This document shows, one piece after another, positions 7,320 through 43,213 of a stretch of DNA of 64,000 bases. The first letter of the stretch is position 1. Every line of letters starts with the position of its first letter. Location: the NCBI GenBank assembly GCA_050084515.1, contig CM114271.1:35464001-35528000 (forward strand). The letters are read 5' to 3'. Under the pieces are notes generated by a model. That model was not told where the DNA came from and did not search any database. It was given only the letters and a program-made list of their open reading frames with translations. Position numbers and translations under genes: made by a program. The stretch is from Blasia pusilla (lineage: Eukaryota).

Positions 7320-8000
7320 GGACTTATATAGACAATCCCACCAAAAGGCCACATAAATGAAACCATGGCAATCGCACCATACTATCTTAACTATTTAGAG
7401 TAAGTGGTCTTAAATTGGCCCACATCTTGGAGGAATGTACCTTGCAAATACAGTCACTAGAGTTCCTCCCTACCATGTATTTGGAAGGCTCAACTATTAA
7501 TAAATGATTTTCTTCAAGGCCTCCTTGGGATACTACTCCAACACTCAAGTTCATCTTATCATCGAATTCCACATGTGCATGACGTTATGGTGCATAGCAG
7601 CACATATGGTCCTTCCATACCATATCATTACGAACTTCCATATCAAAAAATTGTGAAGGCAATATCCTCCTTGCTCTCAAGATATTGTGAGTTGTAGTAA
7701 CATTTAGAGTTTTTCGTGTGGCTTGCTGCGTACATACATAATCACAAGGGTGAACCTTGTAAGCATCTAAACTATAATATTCTCCTAAAACAATGGCATA
7801 ACTTAGTGTATCATAATATTTAGAAATATCTAGGTTCTAGAATGTCATGGCCATCACTCATTGAAAGAGTTTGACATAGTTAGAACACTCTCATCCACAC
7901 ACTCGAATTATCAAGGTCCAGACCTCCAAATTATTATGAAGTATTACCACCGATAATTCTATTTAGTACTCGACCAAATAACAAGAAAGACGGTGAAAAG
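7320..8000 (-). mobile_element. Highly decayed Ty3/gypsy integrase C-terminal fragment (PHD lineage)
   Basis: Minus translation ..VWKDHMCCYAP.. resembles IWKDHVRNCAPCH at ~32885. Confidence 0.35.
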
Positions 8001-8537
8001 GATGCACATCTACTAAATTACTAAATCATAGATAGATATGATAGTCGTATATCCTAATTCCCCAACTACTTTTGCGAAAAGCTATACCATGGCAAACTCC
8101 TCTTTACCTTATAGACCACCATTTTTCCAACCCTTAAATCTTAGGATGATCCCAAGATATAGTCTAATATTCAAACAAATTAAGCTAGAAACTCCGTATG
8201 AAACTCTATCCCATGGTCGATATGCACTACTTTTTGAGGTGCAATAGACTTTAAAGGAATTGAAGAGGAGAAGGCTTCTCCATTTCCAATGTGAATTGAT
8301 CGAGAGAACTGTAATTTATATCATAGTTTTAGGTGAGATATACTTGACACAAATTTTGTGAGGCATCAATGCCAATCATGGTATGATTGAGTGGGGTAAA
8401 TCACAAGGTGCATGCATGTGGGCACTTTCATTGCTAATTTCTAGATGGTTCTTTGTTGCTACTATGCCAAATGAAAGTTGGATAGGAGTAAAATTATTGA
8501 AAGGTCGAAAGTGATTGTGGAGAAGTAAAAGGATAGT

Positions 8538-9040
8538 TGTCACATCTTAGTTATCCGACATGTAGAGTTCTACCTTGTCGACAGCATAGAGGGTCAGCCG
8601 GCGTAACTTCGTCCTAAGATGTCGGATGAGGTTGGCGACACGTCCATTGCATCGGGAGTGTTATTTCTGACAATTTCACTTCTTTGCTATTTCTGGTCAA
8701 GTGACCCATTGATCTATAGATGTTCTATGCAATTGCGAAATAGTTCAAAGTACTCCATTTAAGTACTCATAACTATTCGAGTACAAGGAGGGGAATAATC
8801 TAGTCAACGATCACCCAGTAACCTGTGCACGCAAGTTACCGTTTGGAGGCTATTTTAAGAAAGAGAGAGATGGCTTTCCCAAGCCATCTGTCTCATGTTA
8901 GGCCTTAGGAGCACCTCTCTTGCTTTCTGTGTAGTAGGAATTAGGGCGATAGCATCTGGATTCCCTCATAGTGGAGGGTGGATGTGGCTCAATATGAAAA
9001 TATGGATTCAAGAGTGGAGTAGGCTATGTGATTTATTTTT
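8538..9040 (+). mobile_element. Truncated LTR, same subfamily as the solo LTR at 29958-30573
   Basis: Starts TGTCACATCT; colinear similarity to ~29958-30430 (gtcggatgagg, gatggctttcc.aagccatct.tctcatgtt.ggcc.t.ggagcacct). Confidence 0.65.
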
Positions 9041-10402
9041 ACTCTAATCTTACATGAGAAAGATGCAAAGGGGAACAAGGAATTTGTTGTATGTAGATAG
9101 TCTAGCAAGTTGCCTTGGTAGGGAGCCCTTGGAGACATTGGTTGGCGTTTGTGTTGTCATTTTTGTTTGGAAGCCCGTGCGTGGAAGTGTTGTCCAATTT
9201 TCTTAGAGTTCTGCAGGTCATCTACTGAGCTAGGGTAGAGGCGGCAGGAGCGCTTAGGTGTAGCATGCAATGTGTAATCGACGAGTGAGCGGCATAGTCG
9301 CTTAGATTAGGGCAAAAGCTTAGGTTGCATAGAGCACAGTTGAGCTAGAATTATGCATGTAGAGAAGTCCCATATGGAACCAAGTCAAAGCTGGCTCAGT
9401 TGGGGATTCTTCTGTGTAAGTGGCATCGGACAGAGTAAGATAGGTTGTGTAGGTGTTAGATACGTAGGCAAGCTAATGGAGCCATATGTGTAAGGCAAGA
9501 GATAGTAGAGGCACAAGGGTAGAAGAGGTCAACAAGGGCAACAACTAGACGAGGGACACATGGGTTTAGGGTGTGTGGAGTCAAGGGTTGAGAGAAAGGA
9601 AAGAAGGATAGAGCCATAATAACTCCAAGGTACATGGGAAGTACAAAGATTCCTACAACTACGACTATATAGAGGGTGGGCACGGCCGCATAGGGCGGCG
9701 TGCCCATAGCTAACGGATCGAAGGAAAGAAGAGTTGAGGGCGCACGGACGCGTACCAATAAAGGTCAGATGGGAAGTAGAAGGCATCAAAGTCATGCATG
9801 AGGTACATCACGAAAGTTAGAGGGTGCTACCCATGATATAATTTGAATATGAAATCTGATAGGGCTAACTTTCATATTGATTTGATAGCAATTAAATTAA
9901 TTTTTTATATCAATAAACTTTCCACGTCAATTGTATGCACAAAATTTTCTATAGCAAAAATTTCAATACAAAAATGACATCACAAATTCATCAAACACAT
10001 ATCATATTCGAATTGATATCAAAATGGCGTAGCTCCAAGTAGTTTGATGTACAACATGGGGTTACAAAGTTGGGTGAGTTTTGAATAGAGAAAGCTGGCG
10101 GAAGGAGTGAGGACGTCCAAGTACAAGGGAGTCAGGTTTGAGGGAGCGGCATAGGGCGGCGAGCGAGGGGTGGATGAAGTTGGGCTCTACGCGGCGTGTG
10201 TGCATATGCACGCTAAAGTGGAGGAGATAGCCACAAGTAGGCATGCAAGAGCAAGGTAAGTTGGTAAAGATGGAATGGAGCCTCTGCATAGGGAAGCATA
10301 CCTATGGGGGGGTAGTATAGGCACCATGTAGAGGTGGGTACGCAAACGAGCTAGAGGCATGGGTGAACCAAGTAGGAAGTGAGTAACCGTGGTAGACGTG
10401 GA

Positions 10403-11017
10403 TATCGTGCGCATACACATCGCTACGCAACATACATCGTTGTCAACAAATATACACATAAATACACACAATCCCATGCTTACTCGTGGCATCCAGAAAA
10501 CAAAACGAGAAGTACCAAAATATCTCCAATTAAATCGATCCAATCTCATATCACATCTCACACCAAGCTCTCCATGGTGTGCACTCTCTCTCATGTCAAA
10601 CCAAACCCACTCTCTTAATGAGAGGCTTAGGTTACATACACAAGGCAAGGAGGACCATAGCTCCGCCACCTCATGCCAAGAGGTTCAACAAAGAGAGAAT
10701 GAGCTCTCAAGTTCTCTCTCTTGGAGGTATATCCCCTTCCCTCTCCCAAGCTCTCTCCTCGGTAGCCTATGTTTGCAGGTCACCTCCTTGGCTCTTGACC
10801 TACTGCAGCGGGTCAAGGGCCACTTTCCAAAGTGGAAAGACAAAGTGAAATAGTAAGTTTCTCTATATGACTCCAAATGAGCCAAAACAAAGGGGAAACC
10901 TGCTCTCTCAGGTTACCCGTGGCATCAACAGATCATCCTCGACCTCTAGAGGCTGTCCTCTAGTATCTATGAAGGCGCTCTACTAGATCTCGCCGATCAA
11001 TCCTAAAAGACGTCATA
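10403..11017 (-). mobile_element. Solo LTR of the PHD/DNMT gypsy lineage, 4-bp TSD TGGA
   Basis: Diverged reverse complement of LTR 33438-34049 along its full length; TGGA at 10399-10402 and 11018-11021. Confidence 0.85.
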
Positions 11018-11239
11018 TGGATGACTAGCCACATGTGGTTGGATGTAGATATGATTGATTCGAGTTACGTAGTAGGAGAGATTTTTTAGACTTGGTGTTT
11101 TTATAGTGTGGATGGGAATTGCGACGGGAGTTTGTTTGCAAATGCGAGTCGATTAGATGTCAACTTAGTAGTACTTTATTGACTGTGGACACGAGAGTTT
11201 GTGAGGGAGTGTTAGTGATGGAGACACATTCGTCGATGT

Positions 11240-14200
11240 TGATAGGTAGTCCCCATCCGCTGCTAGGAGGTTCGATATGCTATTCAAGGAGATTTTCGTG
11301 CCGCGGAGGTTGCTACAACACATAGAGCAATCAATGTTGGACTATATAGTAGAGTGATGGCGTGCATGTTCAGCTTACCCATTTGAGTCCCTTTTCCCAC
11401 ACTTGACTCATGTCATTGGGGGCGTTAAGTATCAGGTGGAGCTTAGGCTAGATGGATGTAGCGATGATGACGAGTGTAGACTCCTTGCATGTGTACCATA
11501 TATATGGATATAGGGCGGTTACTTGAGTAGGGATTGTGTGTATGATCCGAGAGATTGTTAGTACCTTAAGTCAGCTAGTTTGGGAGGCTCAAGGTGAGCC
11601 TGAGTGTTGAGTGTGCATGAAGCTAGGTGTGTCATCATAGGATCAGCATTAGCATAGGTGAGCTAGAGAGGAGTGTGAGAGGCTATCGACGAGTCTGAGT
11701 TCTCCAGTTCACCTCGGAGTGGAGTAAGGTATCGAGGGGTTTCAAGTGAGAAAGCACGTAGACTCCCATCCGTGGTTGGATTTTCATCATTGGATAACAA
11801 TCTTGTAACAAGATCACAGATAGACGACATCGGCCATTGAGCATGTATCGTTTCTCGAGTGCAGTATGGTGACACCATTAATCTAGATAACTTAATCCAC
11901 AAGTTCAACACATGCTGCCACTTTTAAGAGATACAGGCCCCTACATGGTTCAACCCTTTCATGGCGTGGAAGAGTTTGTTCGAGCCTTTAGAGGGTCCTC
12001 CGATGGATGACTATATGGAGTTTTGGTCTTTATAATCGGTAGAGATCGATGCCTCAAGGATGTATTGGACTCCATAGTATGTGTCCTCTATTAGCTGCAA
12101 GGCATATGATGGGATAGTGAGAGGGGAGAGACCTACACCATCAGCCCGGGGACTAAATGGAGATGATGGCTGTGAGGGTGGCGAGGTGGCATAGACCTGT
12201 GGTGCTAGAGCACCATCCAATTTTATTCATATAGTGGAGTTATTTCTACAATTGGGAATTTCGAAGGAGCTAAAGAGCTAACAAGCTAAAGAGTGTTTAG
12301 GATATTCAACGGATATCGGATGAGAGTCTGAGAGAGGCATTCACACACGTGCGACGATTGATCATTAATTTCCATATATGGAGTGATGAGGCACATTGAG
12401 TACAATATTGGTACATGTTCTAGATCGGGAACTACGGAGGAGAGTTTGAGATGCTACGTTGCTTCACACGGTGAAGCCCACATTAAAGGTGGTCTTTGAG
12501 TTTTCTAAGCGGATTGAGTTCAACATGAGTGAGGAGCCGGTAGTGACCACAGGACTTTTGTGAGAGTTGACGGGTCCATGAGTCGCAGTATACATCTCCA
12601 CAAGTGCCCCAACGTGCACCAGTAGCATGGAAGCGAGGCAATGTGCCCAAAGATCAGGGTCGGTATCATGAGGCAATGGCCCGTACCAAAATACGTTGCC
12701 CAACAGGGACAGCCGATTGTCTACTCGATGTGTGGTGGGCCCCATAGGTAGAGGGACTTCCCACAACATAGTAGAGGACAGAGGGTGCCTCCAAATGCTC
12801 AAGAGCCACCTAGGATGGCCCCACCATAGTTAACCATTGCCATCGATATGGTCACACTAGAGATAGGTGTTTTGACCTTTTTCGAGAGGCACGTCCAAAG
12901 GTAGCCTGAGGGCCTTAGGAAAGTCATCTTAGTGTAGGTTGGAGAGGTTTTGGTCATGGAGGTAGAGGTCCAAAAAAATTGCCAGAGGAGATGGAGCGCG
13001 TACACAAGAGGCAATGCTTCTCTCACACATTGATCAGTTGGAGCATAGTATGACAACCATGACAATGGCATAGACAAGGATGGAGCCAAACTCAAGAGTA
13101 TCTACTTTGGGTGGCGCCTCCACTAGCTTCTTATCATGAAACATGAAAGGATTACCTTAGCATGGGATTTATGTTTAGTGTTACTCAAGTAGAGGCTTTT
13201 ATGGTGGTGACTCAATATGCTACAAAATGATCGAGCCACTTAGAGTTGGGATAGAGATAGACCCACAGGAGGGAATCGGCAAGTGATAGGCCAAAGTTCT
13301 CCAGTCGTTTATGTTTTCGGAGGCACTACAAACACCATCGAAGAGACCATCGATGGTGCCTAGATGACTAGCGGTGCCCACAAATGGGGTAGGTAGGTCA
13401 GCATCACGAGGAGTAGGAGACGACTCTTATTTTGGCTCAAGTGGAGCTTAAATAAACCACGTTGTTGGAGGTGGCCATTAGGGTGAGCAAACTCTTTTTT
13501 TTCCACCATGGATTTAGCGACAATGGGACTTGGACCAATGGAGGTGTTCCAACTGGTCGCCACATGATGTGACCATAGACACATGGTGGACTTTCCCTCG
13601 GAGCATATGCTCGGGATGTTCCCCACTCAGTCATGGCAGGTTGTGGTGGCAAAGTTGATTGATATGCCAAGTTGATCAGCCATAGAGCAAGCCATATTGA
13701 CACTAGGTGTGGTGTTGTTGGGAAATTGAGTTGGAGTGTTTCGCTTGGTTAGTCCGACCAGTAAAGTGTAACACAAAGCGCATCCGACTTGATTCGGGAG
13801 TGCATCCCTTGACGTCAGGGAGGGTATCGTGTTTGGCATTGGGGTTACAAAAATTGCAAAGGCGACATAAAGCCTTGTCCCTTTTAGATACAGATCTCTA
13901 TTGGGGGCGTGTCACCCACGTAGTATATGAATCAAAAGAAGTAGTTATCAAAGTCCAACCATAGCATACACTAGATAGTACTATGATGCGTACACGTGCG
14001 ATTACACTGGTAGAGTTGTACAATGTGTTGGTGGGGAGTACGTATGGTGTTATATCCACTGTAATTCATCCTTGATTTTTGGGAGGAGACCGTTGTTTAT
14101 CGGCCAGGGTGGCCATAAGATGATGTATGGCCAGATAAGTCAATTACCCGTGCAATTTGCGGGACACGGTGGTCGACCATGTGATGGTAGAGTGACCACA

Positions 14201-14783
14201 TTGGCAACATTCACAAGTGGTTTTAGCTGGCCAAGAGAGTTTTTTGGGGGAAAACACATACGGAGGACATCCTGACGGCGAATAGTCCCATGGAGAAACA
14301 TACTATAGCAAGTGTCAATTATCATGTTGTTGCTATTAACACTTGCTCTTCACCGGTCTCTTCACCATTATGATGTACGAGTTGTGATTTGTAGAGGAGT
14401 GCAGATGACCTCGTGAGGCACGTGTGGAGTTGTGCCTTTATCTTAGAGCAAAGAGAGTCATGTAACAATTGAGCTTTTGGAGTGGCGATGTGGACATCAT
14501 TGGATACCACACCTGTTGTGTGGCAGTGTCAAGAGGAGGGTGTCAAAGTATTAGACCTCTTCAGAGGGATTAGCATGGGATTGGTTGCAGTGTTACAAGC
14601 AAGCATACGGGTGGATCAATATCTTTATGTGAAGAGACATGAGATCACACGGCGAGTCTCATTGTGCCATGTGGCGAGGTTGATCCAGAGATATCATGCT
14701 TTATTTCTGGTATGTACAGTACATGGTATCAGCATACACTACCGGCCAATATTTTGTTGTTGGGGGTTCATGACCTGGTGACG
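11240..14783 (+). mobile_element. Decayed Ty3/gypsy internal region (leader, gag, partial pol with DNMT fragment)
   Basis: 12230-12560 translates (with frameshifts) to ..DESLREAFTHVRRLI..LDRELRRRV.DATLL..PTLKVVFEFSKRIEFNMSEE, homologous to gag at 29650-29957 (..LREAYTRLRRLI..TLRTRVREGVLL..PTLRDVFRIAENI.RNLAEE). Confidence 0.7.
14539..14783 (+). pseudogene. Fragment of a C5-cytosine DNA methyltransferase domain (motif I-II region, DNMT3-like) inside a retrotransposon relic
   Basis: GVKVLDLFRGISMGLVAVLQASIRVDQYLYVKRHEITRRVS..YQHTLPANILLLGVHDL aligns by eye with the DNMT3-type N-terminal catalytic region ([31 protein letters not shown]). Truncated before the PC motif; one frameshift. Confidence 0.7.
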
Positions 14784-14784
14784 T

Positions 14785-15500
14785 ATGCCTCGGTGGCCCA
14801 TGTCGTCCATCTCCCTCCGCGTGACAGTGTCTTTGTGTGCAACCTCATCACCAAACCCGTTGTTTGGTGATGATGATCCAACCATGGATCATCATCCTAC
14901 TGGGAGTCAGGGTGGTTCCTCATCAAAACCCCTCGACACCTCACTCCACTCCGTGCAAATCCACTACCACTGCTCAAACTACCCCATTCTTCCAAACCGT
15001 GGAAGAAGGCCGTGATGATAATTCTGTCTCATACGCTCAAGCACTCAAACTTACCGAGAGTCTCCCACACTCCTCACTAGCTCACCTACACTAATGTTAA
15101 TCCCGTGATGACCTCCCCGGTCTTACGCATACTCAATACTTGGTCTTACCATGAGCCTCTTGAACTAGCTCACCTAAGTTACTTACGCTCTCTCTGGCCA
15201 TACACACAACCCTTGCCTGTGAAATCGCCTTATATCCACAAACATGCTATACATGCAAGGAGTCTACACTCGTCATCATCGCTACACCCATCTAGCCTAA
15301 GCTCTACTCGATACGCAACACCCTCAATGATATAAGAGAAGTGTGGGAAAAGGGACTCGAATGAGTAACTTCAACACGCCCGCCATAAATATATTGCATG
15401 TACGGTCAACAATGATTGCTCCATGTGGTGCAGTAACCTTTGTGGCATGATAATCTCCTCAAGCAACACGTCAAACCCCCCACCAACAGATGGGTGGATC
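14785..15500 (-). mobile_element. Second, inverted copy of the gypsy leader region
   Basis: 15040-15500 is a diverged reverse complement of ~11240-11700 (e.g. atgcaaggagtctacactcgtcatcatcgctaca). Confidence 0.7.
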
Positions 15501-17606
15501 AACCCAGCGTGTTGGGAAGATTGATGTTGTGTGGTGTGTATATGTGACCAGCAAAGTGTATGCACATGACAACATCTTGAGACTAGCCTTTCGCAAATTG
15601 GGGCTTAGCCACTCATAGGGATCAAGGACTAGGCAAGTTAGTTGAAATATTCTTGAGCCAATTAAGTTTCAAGTTAAGGCCTAGAAGCAAGAAAGGCCAT
15701 GAGGAGTTGAGATCGACAATATGCCATGAGACTAGTTGCCAAACGTAAGGGTTAATATTACAACCATGAGATACCAAATGATGGGAGTCAAGATGGGCGA
15801 TAGCCGTGAGATATTAAAAGTGCCGGATAAGGTTATAAGGTGAGTTTGGATAAGTAAAGATGGACACAATCTAACATGAGACTCCCCTGAGTCATCCTGA
15901 GGGTTAACTGGATAAACACAGGTGCACGAGATGCAAACCACATTTGGGTTGAGGACCACAACCAACACAAACAAGGATCCAAAGTGGATATTGGGAAACA
16001 TAGGGTTCCCTTGGACAACCCTAGAATTACATAAGGGGAGGGAGTCTCTATTTCCCTACCCACTTGAGTCTTGGAATAAGGGGTTAACCATATTTCGGAT
16101 TTGAGCTAAGGAATTGTTCAAGCAACACCTTGAGGTTTACAACACGTTATGATTGGGTGAGGGGTTGGCGGAGAATGGTTAGGGGGATTAGTGACTAAAC
16201 CTTCTTAAGGAGTTGATACTCATCTTGGGAGACTCAGAACCAATGAGTGTGGGGAGGCTCCATCGAATCATCTAGAAGACGTGTGAACGCTTGGGTCTCC
16301 AAGACTCAACCCAAGTTTTCCACGTACATGACTCGAGGTGGAGATCTCTTAGACATTGGCAAGAGGAGTAGAGGTTGAATTTTGCAAGGGGATTCAGAAC
16401 ACTATTCAAGCTCACCAACATTTGGAGTACATCAAGGGTTATGTTGGTCATAGCTTGAGGATATAGTCAATCCATCATGACCAGAAATTGCATGTTTCAT
16501 TGATTAACCATGTGGGATTTAGGGCCATTGATCACAATCTAATTGTGATATGAGATGTGAGTCATGTGACGATAGATCATCATGAAATGCAATAAGGGAA
16601 ATGACTTCACTCATAGAAACTTGTGAATTTCACCTCACTCAAAAATTCACATGGAAGATTTGTAGGCATATTCTATACAGATTTTTTGAAAATTTGAAAA
16701 ATAGACATTATTTTCTTGATTTTTTATTCCCAAATTAAAATAGTTAATTTATTTTACTACTTTTCTATCATTGGGTGATAAATATAGATTCCCAAAGAAT
16801 AAAACTTCAACTTTTTTTTCCCATAAGTTCCTTGTATACTTTTTCATTACCAATAAATTTCTTCTTGTTTGCTTCTATATTTATGAATGGCACAAGAAAT
16901 TCAAACCAATGGATGCATACAATGATAAGTGGAAAGAGGTTGAAGGGACTGAACTTTAAGGGATATATGATACACCATTGTACAACTTGTATCTTGCGGG
17001 AGACTAATAAACATGCTGCTCATGAATTCATAAAGTTGTATTGTTATCCCTTATAAAAAATATTTTCTTGTTGTACAATTGCCATGTGTCAAGAAGATAG
17101 GTGTTTGTAGATCAAGAAGATACTCTCCAATAATAATATAGCCGATGGATGAAAATAATCTTAATTTACTATGGCCTCTCAAAACAACTCTACCTCGGCT
17201 ATAAGAATCCAAAATATATCACATAACCAAACTCCAAAACTAGGAAGGAGGTTACAACAATATGTCACGAACCCTCGAAAGAAGGCAATTTCGTCTCATG
17301 TAATTTTTACATTATTTATGGAATTTTTGTGCCCACCATTATCAAACCTTCATTTTGAGATGCACATTTTTCCATTTATGTGAACCGATATGGATTGGTG
17401 TGATTTTACTTCCTTCCTTCCTTTCTTTTATACCTTACTTTGATTGGTACTAGTAATAGGAGCCAAAAGCCTTGTAACAAGTCCACGTATATGGCCTACC
17501 CACATATGTGACAAATATGTGACAATTTTGAGCATACAAGCCTTGTAGATAATTTGGTTTGGAAAGGATGGTTAAAACAAAAATCAATCATAAATTGGAT
17601 TAACAC

Positions 17607-17750
17607 TAGTTAGGACCCGTGAAGGGATCGTGTACGGTCCTCTCATGTTCCCCACCCCAAAGGCCTGAACTTGAATGCCCTCTTTTATCTTTGGATTAAA
17701 AAAGACACATGTCGTCACGAGAAGACGCTCCTCCCTTAATAATATAAATT
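17607..17750 (-). mobile_element. Mini-Helitron-like element
   Basis: CTAGTTAGGACCC.. end and ..TAATAATATAAA end, shared with the copy at ~50811-50990. Confidence 0.45.
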
Positions 17751-19129
17751 ATTTTCTTTTCCACATAAGAAACGAAAACGTCACATTGAAGTTTAGTATG
17801 ATATATACCCTTTATGACTAGAAACCCGATTCCCTCCCATTTCCTTAATTAATTAATTAAATTTAAAAAGGGGGGAAAAAAGTGATTCCAGAGAAGGGCG
17901 TCCGTGCATAGGACACCACAGCCGTAGATCTAGAGGTCGACGGTGGTTAGCTCTACCAATCCACTCAGAGAGAAGCACGACAGAGCGGTACAAAGGCAAA
18001 ATATCTCGCTTGTGAACGACCCCGTCGACTTTAAGTCCAGTCCTTGGACTTTAGAAAAGCTGAAGTACGAGTACCCAGAACCCGTAGGCACGCTACTTCG
18101 TCCGGGAACTAAAGTTTACTTCTACGCAGTCGGAGTCCGAGTAAAGGTTGTTCATCGGGGCGTTTCCCGGACCGGAGGAGTCACCGGCCGGGACGGTTCG
18201 GTGCCGCCTTGGAGGGTTTAGTAGGTACGAAAAACTATTTGCCCGGACGTCCAGAAATTATATAGACATGTGTCAATTTAAATAAAATGTTTAAAGTCTT
18301 TGAATTTTTAACTGGTTAATTATACTATTAATCAAACACGTGGGGGTATAACGAGTAGAGGTAAATTTATTTTTATCAGAAGTGAAGCATTGAGTGTGAG
18401 TTTGTCTTCATCCAATGCCAAAGAGGTGTGCAATCGACAAGAATACTTGAATTAAAATCATGGTCATTTTATGCCAGTGCATAGCATAGCACGGGCGGTT
18501 GCTTGCAATTGGGAGTGTCGAATTAAAAACAAAATATTTGATCAGGATTAGTAGGAAGTTGAGGCTATGAGTTTAGTGGCCAATCCAATGCATGGAAATA
18601 ACTACAATATTAAATTATTATTTTTAGACAAACCATTCTTATAAATCGAGAAAGGGAAAAAAATCATCCTTGGAGGATCTTACACTCTTCACCCTTGAAA
18701 ACCCCCACAGAGCATTCTACCTTCCTTATCTATTAAACCACCAACATATGCGTACATATTAGTCATATGTACGCATATGAGAAAGAGCTAAAAATTCTTC
18801 CCGGACATTATTATTGAAATATTTGAAGCAGATCTTATTTCAAAAGAGATTTGATTTGATGGGGTACTTTTCATATGTTTTTTGAAATAACGGTGGTGTG
18901 GTATGACACCTATAAATTCACATGTTTTAGAATTGCAAATAAAAAGACGGTTCTCTCTAAGTTGGAGCGTACTTAACACTATTGTTGGCGAACAAAACTG
19001 AAGAAGGTGGTGACAGTTGTGGAGGCATCAACAAATTGAAGATTATGGATTTATCAACCAAAGGTGAAGGGGAAACTCTGACACTCATTATTGAGGCAAA
19101 GGGGCGAGGAAAATTTCAAGGTAAATCTC

Positions 19130-19400
19130 TTCTCGAATGTTCAGGGTAAATCTCTTGTAGTCGATTGGATTCCTACTCCTTGACAGAATCGGCCGAGCCT
19201 TCTTCCTTGATCTCCGCTTGAGATGCGATCTCGAGTTTCTAAAGGTTGCGAAACTCTTGACTCCCAAGCAGCTCACAGATCTCTTCCACTTCAAACACAT
19301 CGTCTAAGGTGACCGAAAGCTATACCAGGGACAGATCCTCGAGCCGTGAAGCCGTATCATTCAGTAGTACTACGAGACAGTTTGGACATTGGAATTTTCA
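19130..19400 (-). pseudogene. Possible LRR (RI-like) pseudogene fragment
   Basis: Minus frame LLNDTASRLEDLSLV*LSVTLDDVFEVEEICELLGSQEFRNL*KLEIASQAEIKEEG has LxxLxL-like spacing with internal stops; weak. Confidence 0.25.
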
Positions 19401-19716
19401 GCAGCGTCCAGATTTTTTTCCTCATGGCTTTTTCTGCTCAAAATCCGAGTGCACGAAGTTGCTCTGGTCCGAATTCAGCCTCTTCGCGATTCAATGAATG
19501 GTCCATTGATTAACACAGAGAGAGAATGTACTCATTAAGTATCTCCTCTCTTTCCATCGAGTTTGCTGCTACGACACTCTTCCCTCTCATCTCGATTTGG
19601 TTTTGTGGATTGATTCATTGTGATTCCGAAGTGGTGTTGGAATGGTAAGTGTAGTGGTGTGCGTGTTTATCTCTGGTCGTACAGGTTGTGTAGTTTATCT
19701 TTGGTGGTAGCCTTGC

Positions 19717-19895
<179 letters not shown>

Positions 19896-20065
19896 TGTTT
19901 TTAGTCCCTAATCTTGAGCAACCAGCTTAGGGACTCTAACCACTTTGAGGTTGGAAACATCGGGCAAAGTTTTGTGTCAAACACCGAGCAAGAAATTAGA
20001 GAGAAATTCAAACCAAAGCCCAGAGAGAAAGACTTTTACTTTTGTTTTTTTTTGTTTTTTTTTTT

Positions 20066-20705: not shown

Positions 20706-20881
20706 TTCCTATGTGCTCTGCTCAAGAATGAAAAAAATTTCTCGTCCCCTCCAATTTTTCTGCAGCCCTACGCGGGGCAACTTGTATTGCCTCGCCCTGC
20801 CCTCTTGAGCATTACCTATGTTTTTTTCCATTCATGTTGTGTGGATTGAGCAACATTGATCTCGCACGCTCAATGTGTGTA

Positions 20882-21490
20882 TGCATTTGGTGCTTGAGGC
20901 AGTGCCTTTGAACCCTTCAACGACACCCTTCTTCCTCTCTATCCTATCTCCCCTTGAGACTCCGTTATTTCTACTGCACTTCTGTGGGCGAGACTTCCCT
21001 GCCAAGTTTCACAAGAATTTGAACCGGATACCCGTAATAGACAAAAAATTACTAGACACACTGATATATTTTTTTAAGAGGAAGATCACTCCATCAGCGG
21101 CAATAGTCGTTCAATTGCAGTCATTCAATTGCAGTTTTTTCATTCGAGCTACAATGCTGGTTTGCTTTATTAAGCCCTGAAGAGTATGTTTGCATTTGGT
21201 GCTTGAGGCACTGCCTTTGAACCCTTCAACGACACCCTTCTTCCTCTCTGTCCTATCTCCCCTTGAGACTCCGTCATTTCTACTGCACTTCTGTGGGCGA
21301 GACTTCCCTGCCAAGTTTCACAAGAATTTGAACTTGATACCCCTACTAAGACAAAAAATTACCAAATACATTGATAAATTTTCGTCAAGAGGAAGATCAC
21401 TCCATCATCAGCGGCAGTAGTCGTTCAATTGCAATCGTTTAACTGCAGTTTTTTCATTCAAGCTACAATGCTGGTTTGCTTTATTAAGCC
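20882..21490. repeat. Tandem duplication, two copies of ~310 bp
   Basis: tgcatttggtgcttgaggca...ttattaagccc occurs at ~20882-21177 and ~21192-21491 with high identity. Confidence 0.95.
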
Positions 21491-22714
21491 CCGAGGTCTA
21501 ACGCCTGTTCATTTCATTCATTCAATCCTTACGAGCAAAGAACTTTGACGCCCGTGCATCGTACAAGCTTTCTTACTAGTCTTAACTAAAAAAAAAAGAA
21601 ACTTAATAAACAAATGAGATAGAAAGAAAGGAAAGGTTGAAACAAAACTGAACTCCGGGAACAAACATGACATGCTACACAATTTAAAAATAGATGCCAT
21701 AAGAGAGAGAAAAGCCCAAATCCATTTGCTACTCGCTTTGCAGATAAAGAAAGAAAAAATTTACTTCCTCACGAGAGCGCTTCCGATGTGCAGCGGGAGT
21801 CCGCCGGAGGTGCTGGCAAGGGAAGGGCAGGAGGGCGGGCAGGACAGGTCAGCACGCTAACTTGACTGACTCGGAGTCCCAGTCAGACTTGAGTGCGAGT
21901 ACCGGTCGCTGCTTAGCCGAGAGCGGCGGGCGGGCGGGACAGGCAGGACTGAGCTCGGGCAGCGCTGTCTCCCGAGAGGAAGAGCGACGGAAGGGAGGAA
22001 GGCGTGCGACGACGAGAGGAGAAGAGTGCAGTGCGGGGACAGAAGAGAGTGAGGAGGCGAAGGAGACACAGAGAGGGAGAGGGAGAGAGAGGGAGGGAGG
22101 GACCTGCGAGAGGGAGAGAGAGAGAGACGACAAGTCAATCGGAGGGGCGCGGGTTAGTTCGGGCACAGGGGAAGAATCGATAAGGGGGCGTCGCGAGGGT
22201 GCGAGATTTGCAGAGTTCGGCGGTGATTTGATCGGGGAAGTTCTTGGCGGCGAGGAGATTGGACGATTCTACGATACGCGCGCTGCCGTTTCTTAGGTTG
22301 GGAGATTTCATGGTGGATTCGTGAGAATCTAGGTGCGGTGCAGTGTCGATCATCAGGATCGGGCCGGCCGGGACCCGTGGGCTTTCTTCGCCGACGGAAG
22401 GCAGCGCTGCGCGGTTCTAGGAAGGGGGGGGAGAGAGAGCGAGAGAGAGAGAGCGGAGGAGGAGAAGAAGGAGCTGGAGGGGGTTATCAGTCGGATTGCG
22501 GTTCCATTGTTTCTTGTCGCGCCATTCCCGTTGCCCCACAGACAGTCCAGAGCGTCTCATGGTGGGACTTTGATTCCGTGGACACGTAGAGGTTGTTTTC
22601 AGGTGCATTGGCAGTGGTTGGTTTGGTTCGTGGATACCGGTTTGCCAGTCCAATTTCCACATTTGTGATTCGTACGATTGTCGCGCCAGACGAGCGCAGA
22701 CGGAGACCAAAGCG

Positions 22715-22948: not shown

Positions 22949-24438
22949 GTGAGTTCTCGTCACGACATCCTCTGAGGTATCCGAGCTCTGGTGCTGCATG
23001 TGCGAGGAACTTTTGGAATGTCCAGTCCTTCTCACCCATCATACATTTGCGGAATTTCTCTCTTCTCAGAGCACCACCGTTCGTTGCATGTCATATGTCG
23101 AGTCGACGATTAATACAAACAGTTACTCTGGCGAGAAATCCATTTTCCAGAGGACTGTAAACAGTCACTGGTTGAGGCCTATGGTTGAAGGCCCCCTTCT
23201 GAGCATGAGCGGTTGTTAGTGGCCCTGTGAAGAAACGGTTAGATGCTGTGAAGACCTCACAAGTTTAGGGGCCTCCTGGTTTCTGTGGATTAACATGGCT
23301 TCGGTTTAAACTGAAGGTGTCTGCGTGCGGTCCTGAACCTGATGGCCTCTGGCAGATCGTTTGAGCTGGGCTATCCTCCTGTCCCGATTTTACTTAGGGG
23401 CCGGTCCAACTTCCCACTGATTACTAACTTGCGAAGGGAGATCACATTCTGTGGATTTTGGTCTGAATCCGACAAGCCAATGGCTCGAGATCTCGCTCTG
23501 TTAGTCTCAAATTCGTGGAGCCTTTCATTGTTGTGACAACTACAGTCTCGAGGCTGCCTGGAAGTTATGGTCGATACTCATCTCTACCCTGGAATTACTT
23601 GACAATTACGGTTTCCCCGGATTACCCCTGCATGGTTGGATCAGTGTCTAAAGTTTCATGAGATACAAGATTAGGATAGCTTCATGTGGCAATGGGGATC
23701 CTATACGAAGCAGAAGACAGAATGAGACTGCTGCCACTTCATTAGTACGGAATGGCCAAGTTTCACTTCACAATGGATGTCTTGATGTCCAGAAGTTTAT
23801 CGTTGACTGAACCTTGGAATTACTCAGTGCGTTAGCAAAGTATTTCGTTGTGGTTCCCTCTATGAAGGTCAAATTATTCGTCTGGTATAGGACAGGGAGA
23901 TGTACCAGTATTTACGGCCAACATGTGCTGTGGGATGTCTGTCTTTTGGAGTTGAGATTCTCGTTTCACTTTCAAAACTCCTCCTTTCACTTTCAAAACT
24001 CCTGTACGATGCCTCAAGTCATCCTTGTCTTCCAGCAGACATGTGCCTATGGAAGCACGTCCAATAATCCGGTTCTTGTCAAGCCTGGAAATTGTGTGAT
24101 ATCTATATGTAGGTTAAAGTTGTTTTACTGTAAAGTCAGTGGCACACAATCATGAATCTGGGTTGCTTAGCCACTAGTTTCTCGCACATGGGTGGAGCCG
24201 AATCGCGTCTGTGTTCAGCCTAGAAGGATGCGATTTGTCTACCAAAATTTTTAGTAGATGGTTCCTGCCCTATCATTGCCTAACTTTTACAATATCAGAT
24301 GGGACCTGCTGCTCTGGAATATGCTCCGAAGATGCCATGTTTGATATGATGATCGAGTACTGCCTACCCTAGTTTATTTTGGGATTACAAGAAACATGTT
24401 CAAGTGGCTCTTTCTCATTCCTCTGTGGTTGTATGCAG

Positions 24439-24984
24439 TTGACAGCGACACCAGATGTGCATATTGTTCAGCCACCGCTGCTCGTGCAAGTCGGACAAGT
24501 CCTTGTTGCTATGCTGGTCATGGACACTTGGCAGTACTTTGTACACCGGTACATGCATATCAACAAATTCTTGTACCGACATGTACACTCACAACACCAT
24601 CGATTGGTTGTGCCTTACGCATTTGGGGCATTGTTTAACCATCCTCTCGAGGGTCTTCTTTTAGATACTGTCGGAGGTGCTTTCTCCTTCTTGTTGTCAG
24701 GGATGACCCCACGGACGTCGGTCTTTTTCTTCTCGTTTGCAACGATGAAAACAGTGGATGATCACTGTGGGCTATGGTTGCCAGGAAACCCATTTCATCT
24801 TCTGTTTCCAAACAACACTGCTTATCATGACATCCATCATCAGCTACATGGTACCAAATATAATTTCTCGCAGCCCTTTTTCAACATCTGGGATAAAGTG
24901 CTCGGGACGCACATGCCCTTTGCTCTGGAGAAACGAGCTGATGGTGGGTATGAGGCCAGACCAACTAAGGAGGGAACTGATTAA
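24439..24984 (+). CDS. SBH: Sphingoid base (sphinganine C4) hydroxylase, exon 2
   Basis: Acceptor tgcAG at 24437-38, in frame. His boxes HRYMH, HSQHH, DDHCG, HDIHH and NFSQPFF..WD of the fatty-acid hydroxylase family. Spliced product is 259 aa; intron is 1490 bp. Confidence 0.96.
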   Translation: MTATPDVHIVQPPLLVQVGQVLVAMLVMDTWQYFVHRYMHINKFLYRHVHSQHHRLVVPYAFGALFNHPLEGLLLDTVGGAFSFLLSGMTPRTSVFFFSFATMKTVDDHCGLWLPGNPFHLLFPNNTAYHDIHHQLHGTKYNFSQPFFNIWDKVLGTHMPFALEKRADGGYEARPTKEGTD

Positions 24985-27016: not shown

Positions 27017-29957
27017 TGTCACGTCTTTTAGGATAGATCGGTGAGATCTAGTAGAGCGCTTTCGTGAGTAGTGGAGGACACGTTCAATAGGTCGAGGATG
27101 ACCTGCTGAAGCTTCGTTTCGGCTCATTTGGAACCATATTGAGAAACTTACTATTTTAGTTAAGTACCATATTGAGTATATGATCGACTTTCTATTTTTG
27201 GTAAATGACTTTTGACCTCCTACATCTTGGGAGAGGGGAGAAGCATACCTCAAGGAGAGAGAGCTTGAGAGCTCATTATCTTTTTGTTGAACCTCTTGGC
27301 ATGAGGCGGCGGAGCTATGCTCCCTTGCCTTATGAGTGTAACCCAAGTGTCTCATTAGGACAGTGGGTTTGGTTTGACACGAGAGAGAGTGCACACTTTT
27401 GAGAGCTATGGTATGAGATGGTGTAGAGAGAGATTGGATCTTACTTTATAAAGAGAGAATGAGAGAGTGAGAGAGCTTCATGGGGGAGCTCGCTGGTCAC
27501 TCGCTGTTTTTGCAGGTTGGGGATCGTGTTCCCCGTTCAGCGGCTCATGGGAGTGCTCACCGGAGCAAGGGCTGCTTTGATTGTTCTTTGCATTTGCCGA
27601 TTTTTCGTGTGGAAGAGTGGCGCGCGGAAGCGTTGCCCAATTTGTGATAGGGATTGATCATGGGGGTGGGTTGCCCCATACCGGTGCTCCCGGGAGCACC
27701 ATATAGCTTGCTGATTTGTATTTTTACAGGTTTTACATTTTGGTTGGGAGAAATTAGCGCGGAAGCGTTGCCGAATTTTGTGTAGGAGAAAGAGACATTG
27801 GACTTTACGAAAGTCCCCTTCAGTTTTTACTAGAATGTCCAATTCCAAATATTTTTTGACGTTTTTGTAGATCGTGAAGCTGTGCGCGTTGTGCAACAAA
27901 CGGTGCGCAATTTGGAGTTGCGAGTAAAAAGTTACGGTCAATCTTGCAAAATTGCCATTGCTGGGCGATTTTTAGGGTTAAATTGTTCAAACCCTAAACC
28001 AGCCGCCACGTCGGCGGCGGCCGTCGCCGTCATAGTCACCGTTACCGGTCAACGTCGATGGTCAACCATCACCGTCAACGGTCCACCGTCCATCGGCCAC
28101 CGTCGGCCGTTGCCCAACGTTGCTCGGAGCTGCATTCGACCGTTGTCCACCCTTTGGTTGCCATTGTGGCCATTACGAATTGGAGGGTCTTCCACGACCA
28201 CCGTTGATTCTTTGACTTGCACCGCCACCACGTACTTTGGTTTGGCCACCACCGTCATCGCAGTTTCGTCATCAACCAGTGATGGTAGATGACCTCCGAT
28301 TATGGTGTTTGAGTTTTGATTTCATGCTGCTAAGTTGTGATTGGTAGCCGCTCGACGACGATCGAGTACCGTGCCGTAACGCCTGTAGCCGCAACGCGCC
28401 GCCGATTGCCACGCCGTACCGCTCGTAACCCCACCGCACCGTCTCAATCGCGGAGCCGCACCGTCATTGTGGAGCGGAGTGTGGGTTTATTGTTGATTGA
28501 GGAGGGTATGCCGTCGAGTGCCGCATCCCACCATCGAGGGCCGTGCCGTTCGTAGCCATTCCGTGCCGCCTACAACGCCGCACCATTCTACTGGAACCGC
28601 ACTGTCCATCAAGGAGTTTTAAGCAGCGTCAGTACGGGAAGAGTATGACTTGCTGATTGGAGGAGTTGTCTCCAGGACCGAGTTGGGGTCGGAATTTGCA
28701 ATTGATGAGAAGTGACATTGACATGTGTTCAGGTTACCCATTCTGGTCCTTTATCCTGCACGTGTGAAGGATTCTGGGATTTGGGTAGTTTATTTGGGGA
28801 TATTGGGTGTGTGGATGCTGAGAGCATCATTTATGTATGTGGTTTAGGGGACATAGACTTGTGTGGGATGTCCAGAGTTGAGGGTAGGTTGTCGATGAGA
28901 TGATAGCCTGGTCGATTTTCCGCACCACGCCGCTTGTTGCGGCACGTTACACGTCTCAGGGAGGGAGAATGTAGATCGAGTGCCGCATGTTTGGGATGAG
29001 TGATTGAGGGATTACTCGCGAGGTTGAGAGTGATCGTATGAGAGGGGCACGAGGGCCATCACGGCGTCCTTTTAGGATTTTGAGAGGCGAGGTAGTGGAC
29101 CTGAGAGTAGCTCTGGAGGGTTTACCGGGAGTGGTACGAGGTTTCGAGGGTCTCCACGTGAGAGACCACCTCGATCTCCTTCTGTGTCGTCTTCAGACGA
29201 GCGGGAGCGTGTAGAGGAGTTTGTAAGCACATCGCCACACATTGTGAGTGGTCCTACCAATTGGGCGTACGAGATGGACGATCAGGGTAGAGGACCGCGC
29301 AGGGTTTCAAGTGCAGCAGGCACGATTTCACAGCAGAGTTTAGGAGTTGGTGCGACTCCCAGCGGGCCAGGAGCTCTAGAGAGTTCAACCCATTTACAGC
29401 ATGGAACGGTATGTTCCAGCATTTAGAGGGGGTGCCCATGGACGATTACCATGAGTTCTCTCAAAGATATGCACGTCAGATCGAGGCGTGGAGGCTCTAC
29501 TATGACCCACATTATGTATCATGGACGGAGCCATTCCCAGATGAGGAGGAGCAGTCAGGAGAGGCTACTTCCTCTTCCACTAGTGACGTTTTAGGAGGGG
29601 TCACTCGCACGGGAGCAGTTGCACCGTCTAGTCGGGTTCGTCCCAGGTTGAACCCTGTGGTTGAGTTCTTTGCTGAGTTGAGGGCGAGCTACCAAGGGGT
29701 ACGGACGCAGAAGTTGCGGAGTATCCACGAATTCCAGAGGCGCCCGGATTAGAGATTGCGTGAGGCTTACACTCGCTTGCGCCGGTTGATCAACGTCACT
29801 CAGGGGTGACAGAGGCTCAGGCTATCCAATCATGATACGTGATGCTGGACTGGACCCTACGGACACGCGTGCGGGAGGGGGTGCTTCTTATGAACACCTC
29901 CCCTACGTTGAGAGATGTTTTTAGGATCGCTGAGAACATTTAGCGCAACCTGGCGGA

Positions 29958-30573
29958 TGTCACATCTGAGTAGCCGATAGGCCGAGATCTATCGTGGATA
30001 GGGCGTAGGAGCCAGCGGACTATCTTGAGTGTAACTTTGTCCCATAGTGTCGGATGAGGTTGAGGATAGGTCCATTGTGTCAAGAACGTCGTTTCTGACG
30101 ACTTTCATGTTGAGGTCTTTTACAGCCGGGTGACTTGTTGACCAGGTCACCTGCCCCTGGTAATTTGTGCGCGCAGGTTACCAAGGGAAGGGCTATTTTT
30201 AGGAGAAGAGCCTTTTGGCTCTTCCCAACCTATGTAAGAGAGGAAGATGGCTTTCCTAAGCCATCTTTCTCATGTTGGGCCGTTGGAGCACCTCCCTTGT
30301 ATCTGTGTGAGCTAGGACTAGGGTGCTAGCGTCCGGATTCCTTGATAGCACAGGGTGGACGAGGCTCGATATGCCGATGTAGATTGAGGAGTGGAGTTTT
30401 AGGCCGGGTGTGCCGTTTTTACTACTCTTTATTTTGTTGAGTGATCTCCATGTATATGTATGAGTTGATTTTTGTACATGTGTGCATCGATCCGTGTATG
30501 GGGAAGATCGGTGTTGTGTGGTGTAGATGTGACGAGCGATGTATGTTGTGTAGCGATATGTATGCGCACGACA
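29958..30573 (+). mobile_element. Nested solo LTR in gag, 4-bp TSD CGGA
   Basis: TGTCAC...GCGCACGACA; CGGA at 29954-57 and 30574-77. Removing it restores gag NLAEESVATMG. Confidence 0.85.
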
Positions 30574-31819
30574 CGGAGGAGAGCGTAGCCACCATGGGTT
30601 CTGGGTGAGAGTAGTCACGATTGACTGCACTACTTGTGCAGCAACGTGGACTCCGAGATAGGTCGACTGTGGCACCAGGAGCTCAAGGAGGATACCGGGA
30701 GGCTGTGCCATGGATGACAGGGGTAGAGGACCGCATAGGTTTTCGGGTGCTGTAGGCACTATAGAGGGGGGCTGGTATTCTGGTAGGAGAGAGGAGAGGA
30801 AGAGAGGAAGAGAGGAGGGTCTTTTTAAAAAAAAAGGGCCAAATCTGCCTCCTCTCTTCAAAACTTTTTGACATATAGAGACCTGCGCCTTCATATGCGG
30901 CTCAGCAGCAGCCGCCTACTATTACTTGTTGGTCATGTGGTGGAGCCCATCATCAACGCGATTCCACTCGTTAGGATCATGGACGTGTGCCTCCGCATGG
31001 AGGAGGAGATTGTGCTCAGAGGTATCTGAGAATAGTCACACTGATACCTCTGAGTTATCAGTGTGACTATTCTCAGAGGTATGGTCATAAACGCGCTAGC
31101 TGTTTCAATTTACCTCCTGAGTTACGTTCGGACTGAGGGCCTGAGAGGGCACCAGAGCGAGTAGCCGGTCCGGGTGGGCTAGAGATCGTGCACCAGGTGG
31201 TCCCGTTGGGGGCCGAGGAGCTGGAGTTTCCCGACAGGGTGGTGGAGCTCCCGTGGAGGAGGTGGAGTCCTACCACCTAGACACGTCGAGGGAGATGCTG
31301 GGCTTGAGGCTAGGATGGCTGCTCAGATACATCAGCTATAGGAGCAGATTGCCGCTATGGCATTGAGATTAACCGATGCCGGATCCGTGGCATTGACATC
31401 ATATGGAGTATCTAGAGATATGGAGGATCCTGGTTGGATGTGCGGGGTTGCCTAGATGGAGGCCGCCGCAGTTGTGATGCGTGGAGCAGCCGCAGAGTTG
31501 GATCCACAGCGGTGGAAAGCCACAAAACAGACTAGTCTTCCTCAATGTTTCACGTTGTCCAAGGCGATGAGGACCCCATTGATGGGTCCTGATCAGAGTT
31601 TGTGGAGAGTTGGTGATGTTATTGGTGTGCAAGCACGGAGGGCGATGGGAGAAGCAAGTGCGACGACTCCTATTGTTGATGCTCAGGAGGGGCATGTGTC
31701 GAGCACGTTGTTGGGGGCAGCCACCATTGTGTACCGCGCTTCTTTATTTTTTGCTTCCGATGTTATGACGTTGGGGGTACGCCCGCCAAAGCTTTTCGGC
31801 TGGCCGCTACGCTATGCAG

Positions 31820-33115
31820 AGTACGCGTAGTGCCGCATCATTTGCAGAGAGCACGACTAGTGCATCATGCCCACGAGGAGTTGGGTCACTTTTAGGTGAA
31901 GCGGACGTACAGCTTGCTCTAGGTTCAGTATTGGTTGCGAGGCATGCAGATTGACGTTCAGTAGTTTGTTGCCAGGTGCATGGTGTGTGATCAGGTCTGA
32001 GCATCGTTCAATGCTTCGACTCCACAGTTGCATCCATTACCGATCATGGGCTTAGGGTATAGATGGAGTTTGGATTTTGCAAGACCTTTGCCTTTGACGG
32101 AGCATCACAATCGTTATGTGTTGGTGATGGTTGAGTCGTTATGTGTTGATCCACTTCTCGAAGTGGATCGAGTTGATTGCATTGCTTGACAAAGCGAGTG
32201 AGGGAGTAGCTTATGCCTTCCTTGACGGAGTGATGAGTCATTATGGCGCACCGGATGAGGTGTTGACAGACTAGGGTACTGAGTTTCGTGGTGAGTTCCA
32301 GGCTTTGTGTGATCAGGCGCTGATCGACCATTGCACGACTTCGCGAGATCATCCTGAGGCGGATGGATTAGCAGAGAGAGAGTTGTGGAGACGTTGAAGA
32401 GGGGTTTACGCAAGTATGGCTTGGAGAGAGATCACCTAGGAGATTGGGATCTCTAATTGCCCTGATTGGCGATGGGATACAGATTCAGCAGGCAAGCATC
32501 CTTAGCGTTTTTTTCACCGTACTTGCTACTTTATGGCCGAGAGCCAGATTTACCTACGGCCATTCTTCGAAATGTTGGACCTTGATGACCCAGATGTATG
32601 GATGCGAGCATGTTCTCAAAGGGCTGAGTTATTTCGGAGAGTGATGCCCATGGCGTTCGAGAACTTGGCGATTGCGCAACATCGGGATACGTTGAGGTAT
32701 GCGACTATTCGGGGTGGTGGTTATCGACCAACTATCCAAAGATTTCATCAAGGAGATTATGTCTACTTGCAGCAGACGGCACCGACGACGTTGGATGTGA
32801 CTGCGGGCGCACTATCCTGAGAGTGCGTGACGTTTTGCCATCCGGTATTCTCTTGTTGGAAGGAGGCAATGGTATGGTATGATATGGAAGGACCATGTGC
32901 GTAATTGTGCGCCATGTCACCTTCCTAACATTGATGGTACAGTAGATCCGAGCTTAGCAGTAGTTCCTGCAGGCTTGCATTGTATGTTGTGTGGTTCTGT
33001 CTGTGGTGCGGCCACGATGCTAGTCTGTGATGGATATTTGAGAGGTTGGCATATGGCATGTCTGACGCCACCTCTCACTAGGGTTCCTCGGGGATGATGG
33101 ATGTGTCCCATATGT
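31820..33115 (+). pseudogene. Integrase with C-terminal PHD finger (degenerate)
   Basis: RVVP..HAHEELGHF..RCMVC..HFSKWIELIAL..HPEADGLAER..; ends [44 protein letters not shown]. Multiple stops and frameshifts. Confidence 0.85.
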
Positions 33116-33437
33116 ACATAGAGGAGATACTAGGTAGGTTTCGATTCTGACTTTTTCTGTGACATGGATGAGAGGAAGGCGACTAACGATGGGGCCACAT
33201 GAGCACCCGACCTTCTTGCTCTTAGCGTCCGAGAGATGTATGTCATGGTAGGTAGGGATAGATGGCTATCTGGAGTTAGAGGGACCTAACTACCAACTAG
33301 GGGGGCGATTGGAGATATTTTAGTACTTCTTGTCTCGTTGTTTGGATGCCACGAGTTAGCATGGGATCGTGCGTGTTTGTGTGTGTGTTCGGTGACAACG
33401 ATTTATGTTGTGTAGTGATGTGTATGCGCACGACAAC

Positions 33438-34330: not shown

Positions 34331-34589
34331 AGATTTGTTTCAAGCTATCACTTGTGTAGCTCGTTGATTTGGTGTTTGCGTTGGCTAGTTGCCATTTTCT
34401 TTTTGCATTCCATTATGCATTTTTTGACTCCTCTTTTGAGATGTTATTACCTTTCTTTGTCCTCTTTTGAGTTTTTTTTTTATAATAAAGTGGATATATA
34501 AACCCATCAGAAGTACAAAGAAGAAGGAGACTCATAGAGAGGGAAGCTTCAAAGTCTCATGTCGTGCAATGACATTTTTGCCCACGTAG

Positions 34590-43198: not shown

Positions 43199-43213
43199 GT
43201 ATGATAGTAAACC

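Follow-up and report, generated by a model that had tools for sequence, protein, structure and literature searches.

A DNMT3-like fragment in a decayed Ty3/gypsy retrotransposon of Blasia pusilla and its relatives among bryophyte polyproteins

Dinoflagellates and one charophyte alga are known to have retrotransposons that carry a cytosine methyltransferase of their own, and the benefit of the enzyme to the element is unsettled. Two such systems are SymbioDIRS-Dnmt3 of Symbiodinium and KnitGypsy-Dnmt3 of the alga Klebsormidium nitens, both described in de Mendoza et al. 2018 (PMC5890265), in agreement with the original prediction for the present locus, which had mentioned DNA methyltransferase (DNMT) retrotransposons as reported from dinoflagellates and charophyte algae. 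According to that paper, de novo CG methylation was reported for the DNMT of the Symbiodinium DIRS element. Passages in PMC12344493 and in bioRxiv 10.64898/2026.05.21.726589 speak of retrotransposon-borne DNMT3 "in streptophytes", with de Mendoza 2018 as the cited source.

The survey table of PMC5890265, as excerpted here, includes Physcomitrella and Selaginella and is without Marchantia and Sphagnum. The words methyltransferase, PHD and Marchantia are absent from Neumann et al. 2019 (PMC6317226), and a transposon-borne DNMT in bryophytes goes unmentioned in the excerpts used of PMC11982613, PMC9033089, PMC6453930, PMC8616336 and PMC5784723. Our search of the full-text literature, with subscription journals outside its scope, did not turn up any land-plant gypsy element reported to carry a DNMT. 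A DNMT-gypsy family seems, then, to be previously undescribed in land plants.

Here we analyze a stretch of 64,000 nucleotides from Blasia pusilla (contig CM114271.1, positions 35,464,001 to 35,528,000; hereafter the window), in which a C5-cytosine DNMT fragment had been predicted from the sequence. We consider it about 90% probable that the predicted peptide is the N-terminal part (motif I almost up to motif IV) of the DNMT3-like domain in a Ty3/gypsy LTR retrotransposon with the polyprotein order gag(CCHC)-protease (PR)-DNMT-reverse transcriptase (RT)-RNaseH (RH)-integrase (INT)-PHD, and that the copy in the window is old, dead and truncated at its 3' end.

The relic in the window and its decay

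The stop-to-stop open reading frame at 14473-14781 on the + strand translates by program to AFGVAMWTSLDTTPVVWQCQEEGVKVLDLFRGISMGLVAVLQASIRVDQYLYVKRHEITRRVSLCHVARLIQRYHALFLVCTVHGISIHYRPIFCCWGFMTW, exactly the peptide of the original prediction; position 14539, where that prediction began, is the G of GVKVLDLF, and VLDLFRGI, which is the SAM-binding motif I, occupies 14548-14571. A phmmer search of 1.84 billion representative proteins returned 47 matches at E<=1e-3, 11 of them at E<=1e-10, the top one being P0003 (E 1.5e-20, 64% identity). BLASTP against P0002 (270 aa) gave 40/77 identities at E 4e-24, and the resemblance of the peptide to its relatives is far from chance. The Protein Atlas lists a DNA_methylase cluster that is most frequent in Streptophyta. 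No second copy of the peptide was found by tblastn within the 64-kb window, and a search of public sequencing runs yielded small shares only (<=0.15), with no RNA holder listed.

The coding remains around the peptide extend over 11874-14807 (+) and are collinear with polyproteins of Marchantia polymorpha across their residues 20-959, that is, with gag, protease and DNMT. As the tblastn reference we used P0052 (M. polymorpha Mp_4g09160, 1278 aa), which has two CCHC knuckles followed by VLLDSGAQPL and the DNMT; eight high-scoring segment pairs (HSPs) in the window cover its residues 20-959. The features of the relic are as follows.

11252-11815, + strand: LTR and/or leader of the relic (its 5' non-coding region), forming the left arm of an inverted repeat (blastn, MAFFT)
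11874-12551, + strand: decayed gag, N-terminal part (tblastn, P0052 aa 20-244, 38%, E 4.9e-28, 10 in-frame stops)
12683-12879, + strand: decayed gag, CCHC zinc-knuckle region (tblastn, P0052 aa 290-350, as aa 290-321 and 332-350 in two frames)
13224-13768, + strand: decayed stretch from gag to protease (tblastn, P0052 aa 449-629, as aa 449-512 and 529-629 in two frames, 6 stops)
13749-14112, + strand: aspartic protease remnant (tblastn, P0010 aa 92-212; LDSG, with D-S-G at 13791-13799)
13779-14727, + strand: stretch matching P0052 aa 634-942 (tblastn)
14233-14727, + strand: linker and N-terminal part of the DNMT3-like domain, holding the predicted peptide (frame 1, with motif I)
14727-14807, + strand: DNMT continuation past a frame change, YQHTLPANILLLGVHDLVTYASVAHVV, ending three residues short of the place of the GWPCQG catalytic loop (tblastn, P0052 aa 943-959 at 14727-14777; P0050 carries this last piece on to 14807)

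The inner end of the left arm lies near the expected gag start codon, which collinearity with P0052 places at about 11817. Pfam zf-CCHC occurs in P0082 and P0101 at the place equivalent to the decayed zinc-knuckle region. The reading frame at 13707-13964 contains RIRLDSGVHPL, and in P0079 the DNMT is preceded by an Asp_protease_2 match (28.3 bits; cut-off, 24.3). Since gag and the LDSG protease are collinear with the reference on the + strand, the decayed gag and then the protease stand ahead of the DNMT and share its reading direction; the DNMT fragment had been said to lie on the same strand as a decayed gag, downstream of it and free of introns, and our tblastn map agrees, with the protease in addition and no intron-sized gap.

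The eight P0052 HSPs contain 32 stops, and successive pieces lie in frames 3, 2, 1, 3, 2, 3, 1 and 3. Motif I reads LDLFRGI in the window, versus LDLFGGI in the aligned relatives; it is recognizable, with the first Gly of FxGxG mutated to R. The terminal piece at 14727-14807 matched P0050 aa 377-403 (48%), P0014 aa 293-309 (71%) and P0052 aa 943-959 (65%). Motif IV (PCQ, with the catalytic Cys) and motif VI (ENV) are missing from the window copy, in which homology stops at 14807. The absence of the catalytic PC motif had been anticipated; the end of homology had been put at 14783, and the homology in fact continues in another frame. The hexapeptide LPPRDS at 14809-14826 was considered as a decayed GWPCQG and was not counted, only its Pro and single-base differences at two codons fitting. 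The relic at 11874-14807 comprises gag, PR and DNMT only, with no RT, RH or INT. Because of the 32 stops, the frame changes, the Gly-to-Arg change in motif I and the end of homology ahead of PCQ, the window copy is judged from its sequence to be long dead, unable to make an enzyme and without function.

A Pfam scan of the 102-residue window peptide returned no family even at E<=10, so that the DNA_methylase match expected of it by the original prediction was not obtained. The fragment is without the PCQ/ENV part, and it is there, at profile positions of about 44-157, that the PF00145 (DNA_methylase) match of most relatives lies; in two relatives the match begins at profile position 3. The scoring region thus lies mostly beyond the retained part, and the blank result does not contradict a DNMT origin. 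The 91 reading frames of at least 50 aa in 8000-20000 likewise gave only sub-threshold chance matches in Pfam, and the identity of the window copy as DNMT and as gypsy therefore rests on homology to its relatives.

Relatives of the fragment and their domain orders

The relatives with species names comprise 19 proteins of Marchantia polymorpha, two of Calypogeia fissa and two of Sphagnum (S. troendelagicum and S. fallax). In the intact relatives the DNMT lies within the Gag-Pol reading frame, as a single reading frame. The inference that a land-plant gypsy lineage carried its own methyltransferase in pol is thus matched by named relatives in three genera. These proteins are annotated as "hypothetical protein" or "DNA (cytosine-5-)-methyltransferase" and could consequently be miscounted among the DNMT genes of a genome.

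The assignment to C5-DNMTs, already proposed for the fragment, is strengthened by the relatives, P0002 scoring 27.2 bits against the PF00145 gathering cut-off of 22 bits and running on beyond the matched stretch into WPCQGH and then ENVPLL. The cut-off was passed by 6 of 21 representatives scanned and by 8 of 11 long relatives. Catalytic motifs had been proposed as a check on the family, and they were largely intact: PC[QN] was present in 61 of 67 family proteins (type B, defined below, 23/23; others 38/44) and EN[VT] in 57 (21/23 and 36/44, respectively), with a motif-I-like pattern in 45 of the 54 that have enough sequence ahead of motif IV.

To place the enzyme among DNMT classes we compared a whole domain, L007:9959-11308, with all solved structures. 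DNMT3A ranked first (E 5.4e-11, chain residues 7-267 of 285), followed by DNMT3B and DNMT3C, then M.HhaI (1e-3) and DRM2 (0.14); the motif order is non-permuted, unlike that of DRM. The stretch that had been termed DNMT3-like on sight aligns with DNMT3A in this search. By this ranking, which is one of similarity to solved structures and not a rooted phylogeny, the DNMT of the family is closest to DNMT3.

The proposed Ty3/gypsy context was also borne out, the relatives carrying a CCHC gag, a protease, RVT_1, RT_RNaseH, an integrase and direct LTRs. Their Pfam order of RVT_1, RT_RNaseH, Integrase_H2C2 and rve is that of a Ty3/gypsy pol with a DDE integrase. A scan of metagenome contigs revealed 53 family loci. 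In four of these (L007, L023, L031 and L046), direct LTRs of 307-342 bp, 86-94% alike, stand about 8.7 kb apart, giving an element of about 9.1 kb. Pfam matches to their reading frames showed DNA_methylase directly followed by RVT_1 in L007, RVT_1 and later rve with PHD in L046, and Integrase_H2C2 with rve in L031. Reading frames of at least 400 aa occurred in 7 of the 53 loci; the longest on confident members (L001-L046) was 508 aa, and the longest overall, 773 aa, lay on L053, a marginal match. The metagenome copies examined individually were broken by stops.

We counted domain orders in the 23 loci of at least 6 kb with domain matches. The order PR-DNMT-RT-RH-INT-PHD, which is that of LTR-bounded copies, was found in 8, DNMT-RT-RH-INT-PHD in 4, PR-DNMT-RT-RH-INT in 4 and partial orders in 7; none of the 23 deviated. 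In P0079, P0082 and P0101, Pfam detected zf-CCHC and an aspartic protease and then the DNMT. Among 67 long family proteins, whose domain order was determined by blastp to reference segments, 40 had the DNMT ahead of RT or after PR (type A), 23 had it between RH and INT (type B), and 4 contained a DNMT alone. The full order of type A is read from these sequences as gag(CCHC)-PR-DNMT-RT-RH-INT-PHD. Type B was represented by 16 complete members of 1693-2295 aa, and in four proteins its Pfam order was RVT_1, RT_RNaseH, DNA_methylase, Integrase_H2C2, rve and PHD. The order gag-PR-RT-RH-DNMT-INT, suggested at the outset for the window element, therefore fits the sister branch in its RT-RH-DNMT-INT portion and does not fit the branch of the window copy, in which the DNMT stands between PR and RT.

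Several further observations concern the polyproteins. A PHD finger (Pfam PF00628) closes the integrase of the family, scoring 34-50 bits in the relatives (for example, L046:13316-14440 and P0092 aa 1847-1891), at the position where chromoviruses carry a chromodomain. Many type B reading frames, among P0085-P0112, are about 2000 aa long and unbroken from RT to PHD. In L007, the DNMT reading frame (9959-11308) and the RT reading frame (11309-12172) are in frame, with one stop codon between them (11306-11308). PR and DNMT only were found in 27 of the 67 proteins, and eight of these (P0073-P0080, 1228-1437 aa) stop about 110-150 residues beyond the DNMT segment. The single stop in L007 and the proteins with PR and DNMT only could reflect either decay or a programmed read-through boundary.

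In an unrooted IQ-TREE tree of 56 DNMT segments (quick search, no outgroup), type B formed one side of a branch with an SH-aLRT value of 98. The window peptide fell into a clade, also with an SH-aLRT value of 98, with P0050 of Calypogeia fissa, P0056 and the Marchantia group; this position should be taken as indicative only, because the peptide contributes 80 residues, has a branch length of 0.82 and was placed by a quick search.

These data bear on whether the peptide could instead derive from a DNMT3 gene of the host, as a pseudogene or as an exon that this single copy of an element had captured on one occasion. The cellular DNMT3 enzymes are the nearest solved structures to the family DNMT, and Pfam detected no transposable-element domain near the peptide in the window, as a host gene would have it. 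The peptide, however, is collinear with gag and protease, an arrangement (PR, then DNMT) that recurs in 34 of the 67 family proteins; it has no intron, shares 52-64% identity with the element-borne relatives and lies within the transposable-element clade of the tree. We consequently regard a host-gene origin as extremely unlikely, and we retain the reading of the peptide as part of a Ty3/gypsy polyprotein.

The 3' end of the relic and its surroundings

Beyond the last DNMT residue, and about 60 bp away from it, the relic is succeeded by one more feature.

14868-15494, - strand: right arm, repeating the relic's own 5' non-coding region in inverted form (blastn, MAFFT) and standing in place of the rest of the DNMT, RT, RH and INT

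The inverted segment had been predicted to start at 14785, which was not upheld by the MAFFT alignment and its start at about 14868. In blastn, 11252-11703 matched 15494-15040 with 75.8% identity over 455 bp (E 8e-88), and MAFFT extended the similarity of the arms to about 11815/14868 with one 75-bp indel. The 5' arm had no match in the 64-kb window besides its inverted partner, so that there is no direct 3' LTR. A primer-binding site and exact LTR ends were not definable in the window upon inspection of the LTR ends and following bases of L046 and of the window arm.

We read the 3' end as the product of a rearrangement by which a truncated copy would have come to adjoin another 5' end in inverted orientation. 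That the inverted arm ends almost at the gag start is tidier than expected of a random rearrangement and counts against this reading. The arms (11252-11815 and 15494-14868, 76% alike, with their inner ends near the gag start) might instead be true termini; the window copy would then be a derivative that carries an internal deletion between DIRS-like inverted terminal repeats, and not a rearranged LTR element. Inverted repeats also occur within L024 and L036, and KnitGypsy-Dnmt3 combines a DIRS-like repeat arrangement with gypsy domains (PMC5890265, Fig. 4 legend). In the part of the same paper that sets it out, however, the DIRS arrangement is A-coding-B-A-B, with direct and not inverted repeats, and wherever a relative has paired terminal repeats, which is so in L007, L023, L031 and L046, they are direct LTRs. 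The family, moreover, encodes a DDE integrase (rve, Integrase_H2C2), and neither a tyrosine recombinase nor the phage-integrase domain by which a DIRS element would be recognized appeared in any Pfam scan of the relatives. Inverted termini are thus unlikely.

The junction at about 14807-14868 could also be an assembly error, the real locus running on into PCQ, RT, RH and INT. Such repeats are easily misassembled, and no contig from four public runs bridged the junction; the contigs from these runs were short, however (longest listed piece, 268 bases), and the missing bridge says little. The summed read depth of the public runs was uneven along the relic and is not a copy number. Against an error, the arms, at 76%, are too diverged to have been collapsed in assembly, and the relic is decayed throughout, so that a truncation is not unusual. 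We regard a misassembly as very unlikely and retain the reading of a rearranged, truncated LTR element.

A second relic of the DNMT-gypsy family was detected by tblastn further along the window.

29274-33256, + strand: second relic of the family, whole extent
29274-31797, + strand: gag of the second relic
31821-32903, + strand: integrase of the second relic
32876-33118, + strand: PHD finger remnant of the second relic

The Pfam PHD match at 32831-33094 (22 bits, E 1.6e-4) is slightly below the cut-off of 24, and PR, DNMT, RT and RH are absent from 29274-33256. Together, the two relics in the window represent both ends of the family architecture. A 331-bp piece of the second relic (31257-31587) is repeated directly at 34588-34918 with 90% identity.

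The window contains other elements as well. The minus strand at about 37160-46043 holds a gypsy element unrelated to the DNMT family, with RT/RH at 42668-41415, SH3_Tf2-1 at 39074-39373 and a weak Ty3_capsid at 44323-44634; its direct repeats of 1 kb (37160-38159 and 45034-46043) are 77% alike, and a third copy (40229-41247) is inverted inside the element. Four copies, 72-84% alike, of a repeat about 400-740 bp long occur at 10394-11017, 27017-27448, 33308-34050 and 44591-45013, and one of them adjoins the LTR of the minus-strand gypsy element; the repeat is probably the leader or the gag start of that family. An integrase fragment at 7603-8242 (-) is 36-44% identical to the INT segment of L046 and distant from both relics. 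Also present are a tandem duplication of about 310 bp at 20875-21494 (91% alike), a tandem-repeat block at 54491-56233 with periods of about 95-190 bp, and two host-like sequences, a DTW-domain reading frame at 1-1065 (-, 41 bits) and a fatty-acid hydroxylase exon at 24373-24981 (+, 88 bits).

Possible role of the family and comparison with known systems

By analogy with the proposal made for DNMT-carrying retrotransposons (PMC5890265), the DNMT of the family probably methylates the new cDNA of the element or its integration site. The integrase-fused PHD finger, in turn, probably reads histone tails and so influences the choice of integration site, by analogy with the chromodomains of chromoviruses, which are said to steer integration in the introduction of bioRxiv 10.64898/2026.05.21.726589. 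More broadly, we tentatively propose that bryophytes, including Marchantia polymorpha, may hold an undescribed and recently active Ty3/gypsy clade with a write-and-read chromatin module (a DNMT3-type enzyme plus an integrase-fused PHD finger), in which the orders PR-DNMT-RT and RH-DNMT-INT would go back to one acquisition. This clade would continue the algal Gypsy-DNMT3 lineage in land plants and would thus be an ancient self-methylating retrotransposon of streptophytes.

A land-plant family would bring the question of DNMT-carrying retrotransposons into a tractable system. The family offers many annotated copies in Marchantia polymorpha, conserved catalytic motifs and the additional PHD reader, and Marchantia permits the reading of methylomes and transcripts at the loci, assays of the domain and knock-out of host methyltransferases. 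The interest of the family is heightened by its PHD finger, by the occurrence of two domain orders and by its presence in a genetic model plant.

Among cellular enzymes, DNMT3A, DNMT3B and DNMT3C share an identical motif order with the family, and the entire catalytic domain aligns; in contrast to them, the family is without a detected PWWP or ADD domain, its enzyme domain lies inside a retrotransposon polyprotein, and the similarity is moderate (E ~1e-10). The EpiLTRs of Cymbomonas and Euglena, as described in parts of bioRxiv 10.64898/2026.05.21.726589, are likewise LTR elements that join a DNMT to a chromatin-reader domain. Their DNMT, however, groups with DNMT4 and they also have a DAM adenine methylase and a chromodomain, whereas the family described here has a DNMT3-like DNMT and a PHD finger as its reader, with no adenine methylase seen.

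SymbioDIRS-Dnmt3 of Symbiodinium, in the account given in the relevant sections of PMC5890265, resembles the family in having a DNMT3-type domain in Pol and two coexisting domain orders, as in types A and B, and differs from it in being a DIRS element with a tyrosine recombinase, versus the DDE integrase and LTRs found here. No protein named from Klebsormidium occurred among 60 family matches, which is weak evidence from a shared-word search. KnitGypsy-Dnmt3, according to the same sections, shares with the family an intronless DNMT3-type domain in the Pol polyprotein of a streptophyte gypsy-type element, with key catalytic residues retained. It has a DIRS-like repeat arrangement, whereas the relatives described here have ordinary direct LTRs, and its host is an alga, whereas those of the present family are the land plants Marchantia, Calypogeia and Sphagnum.
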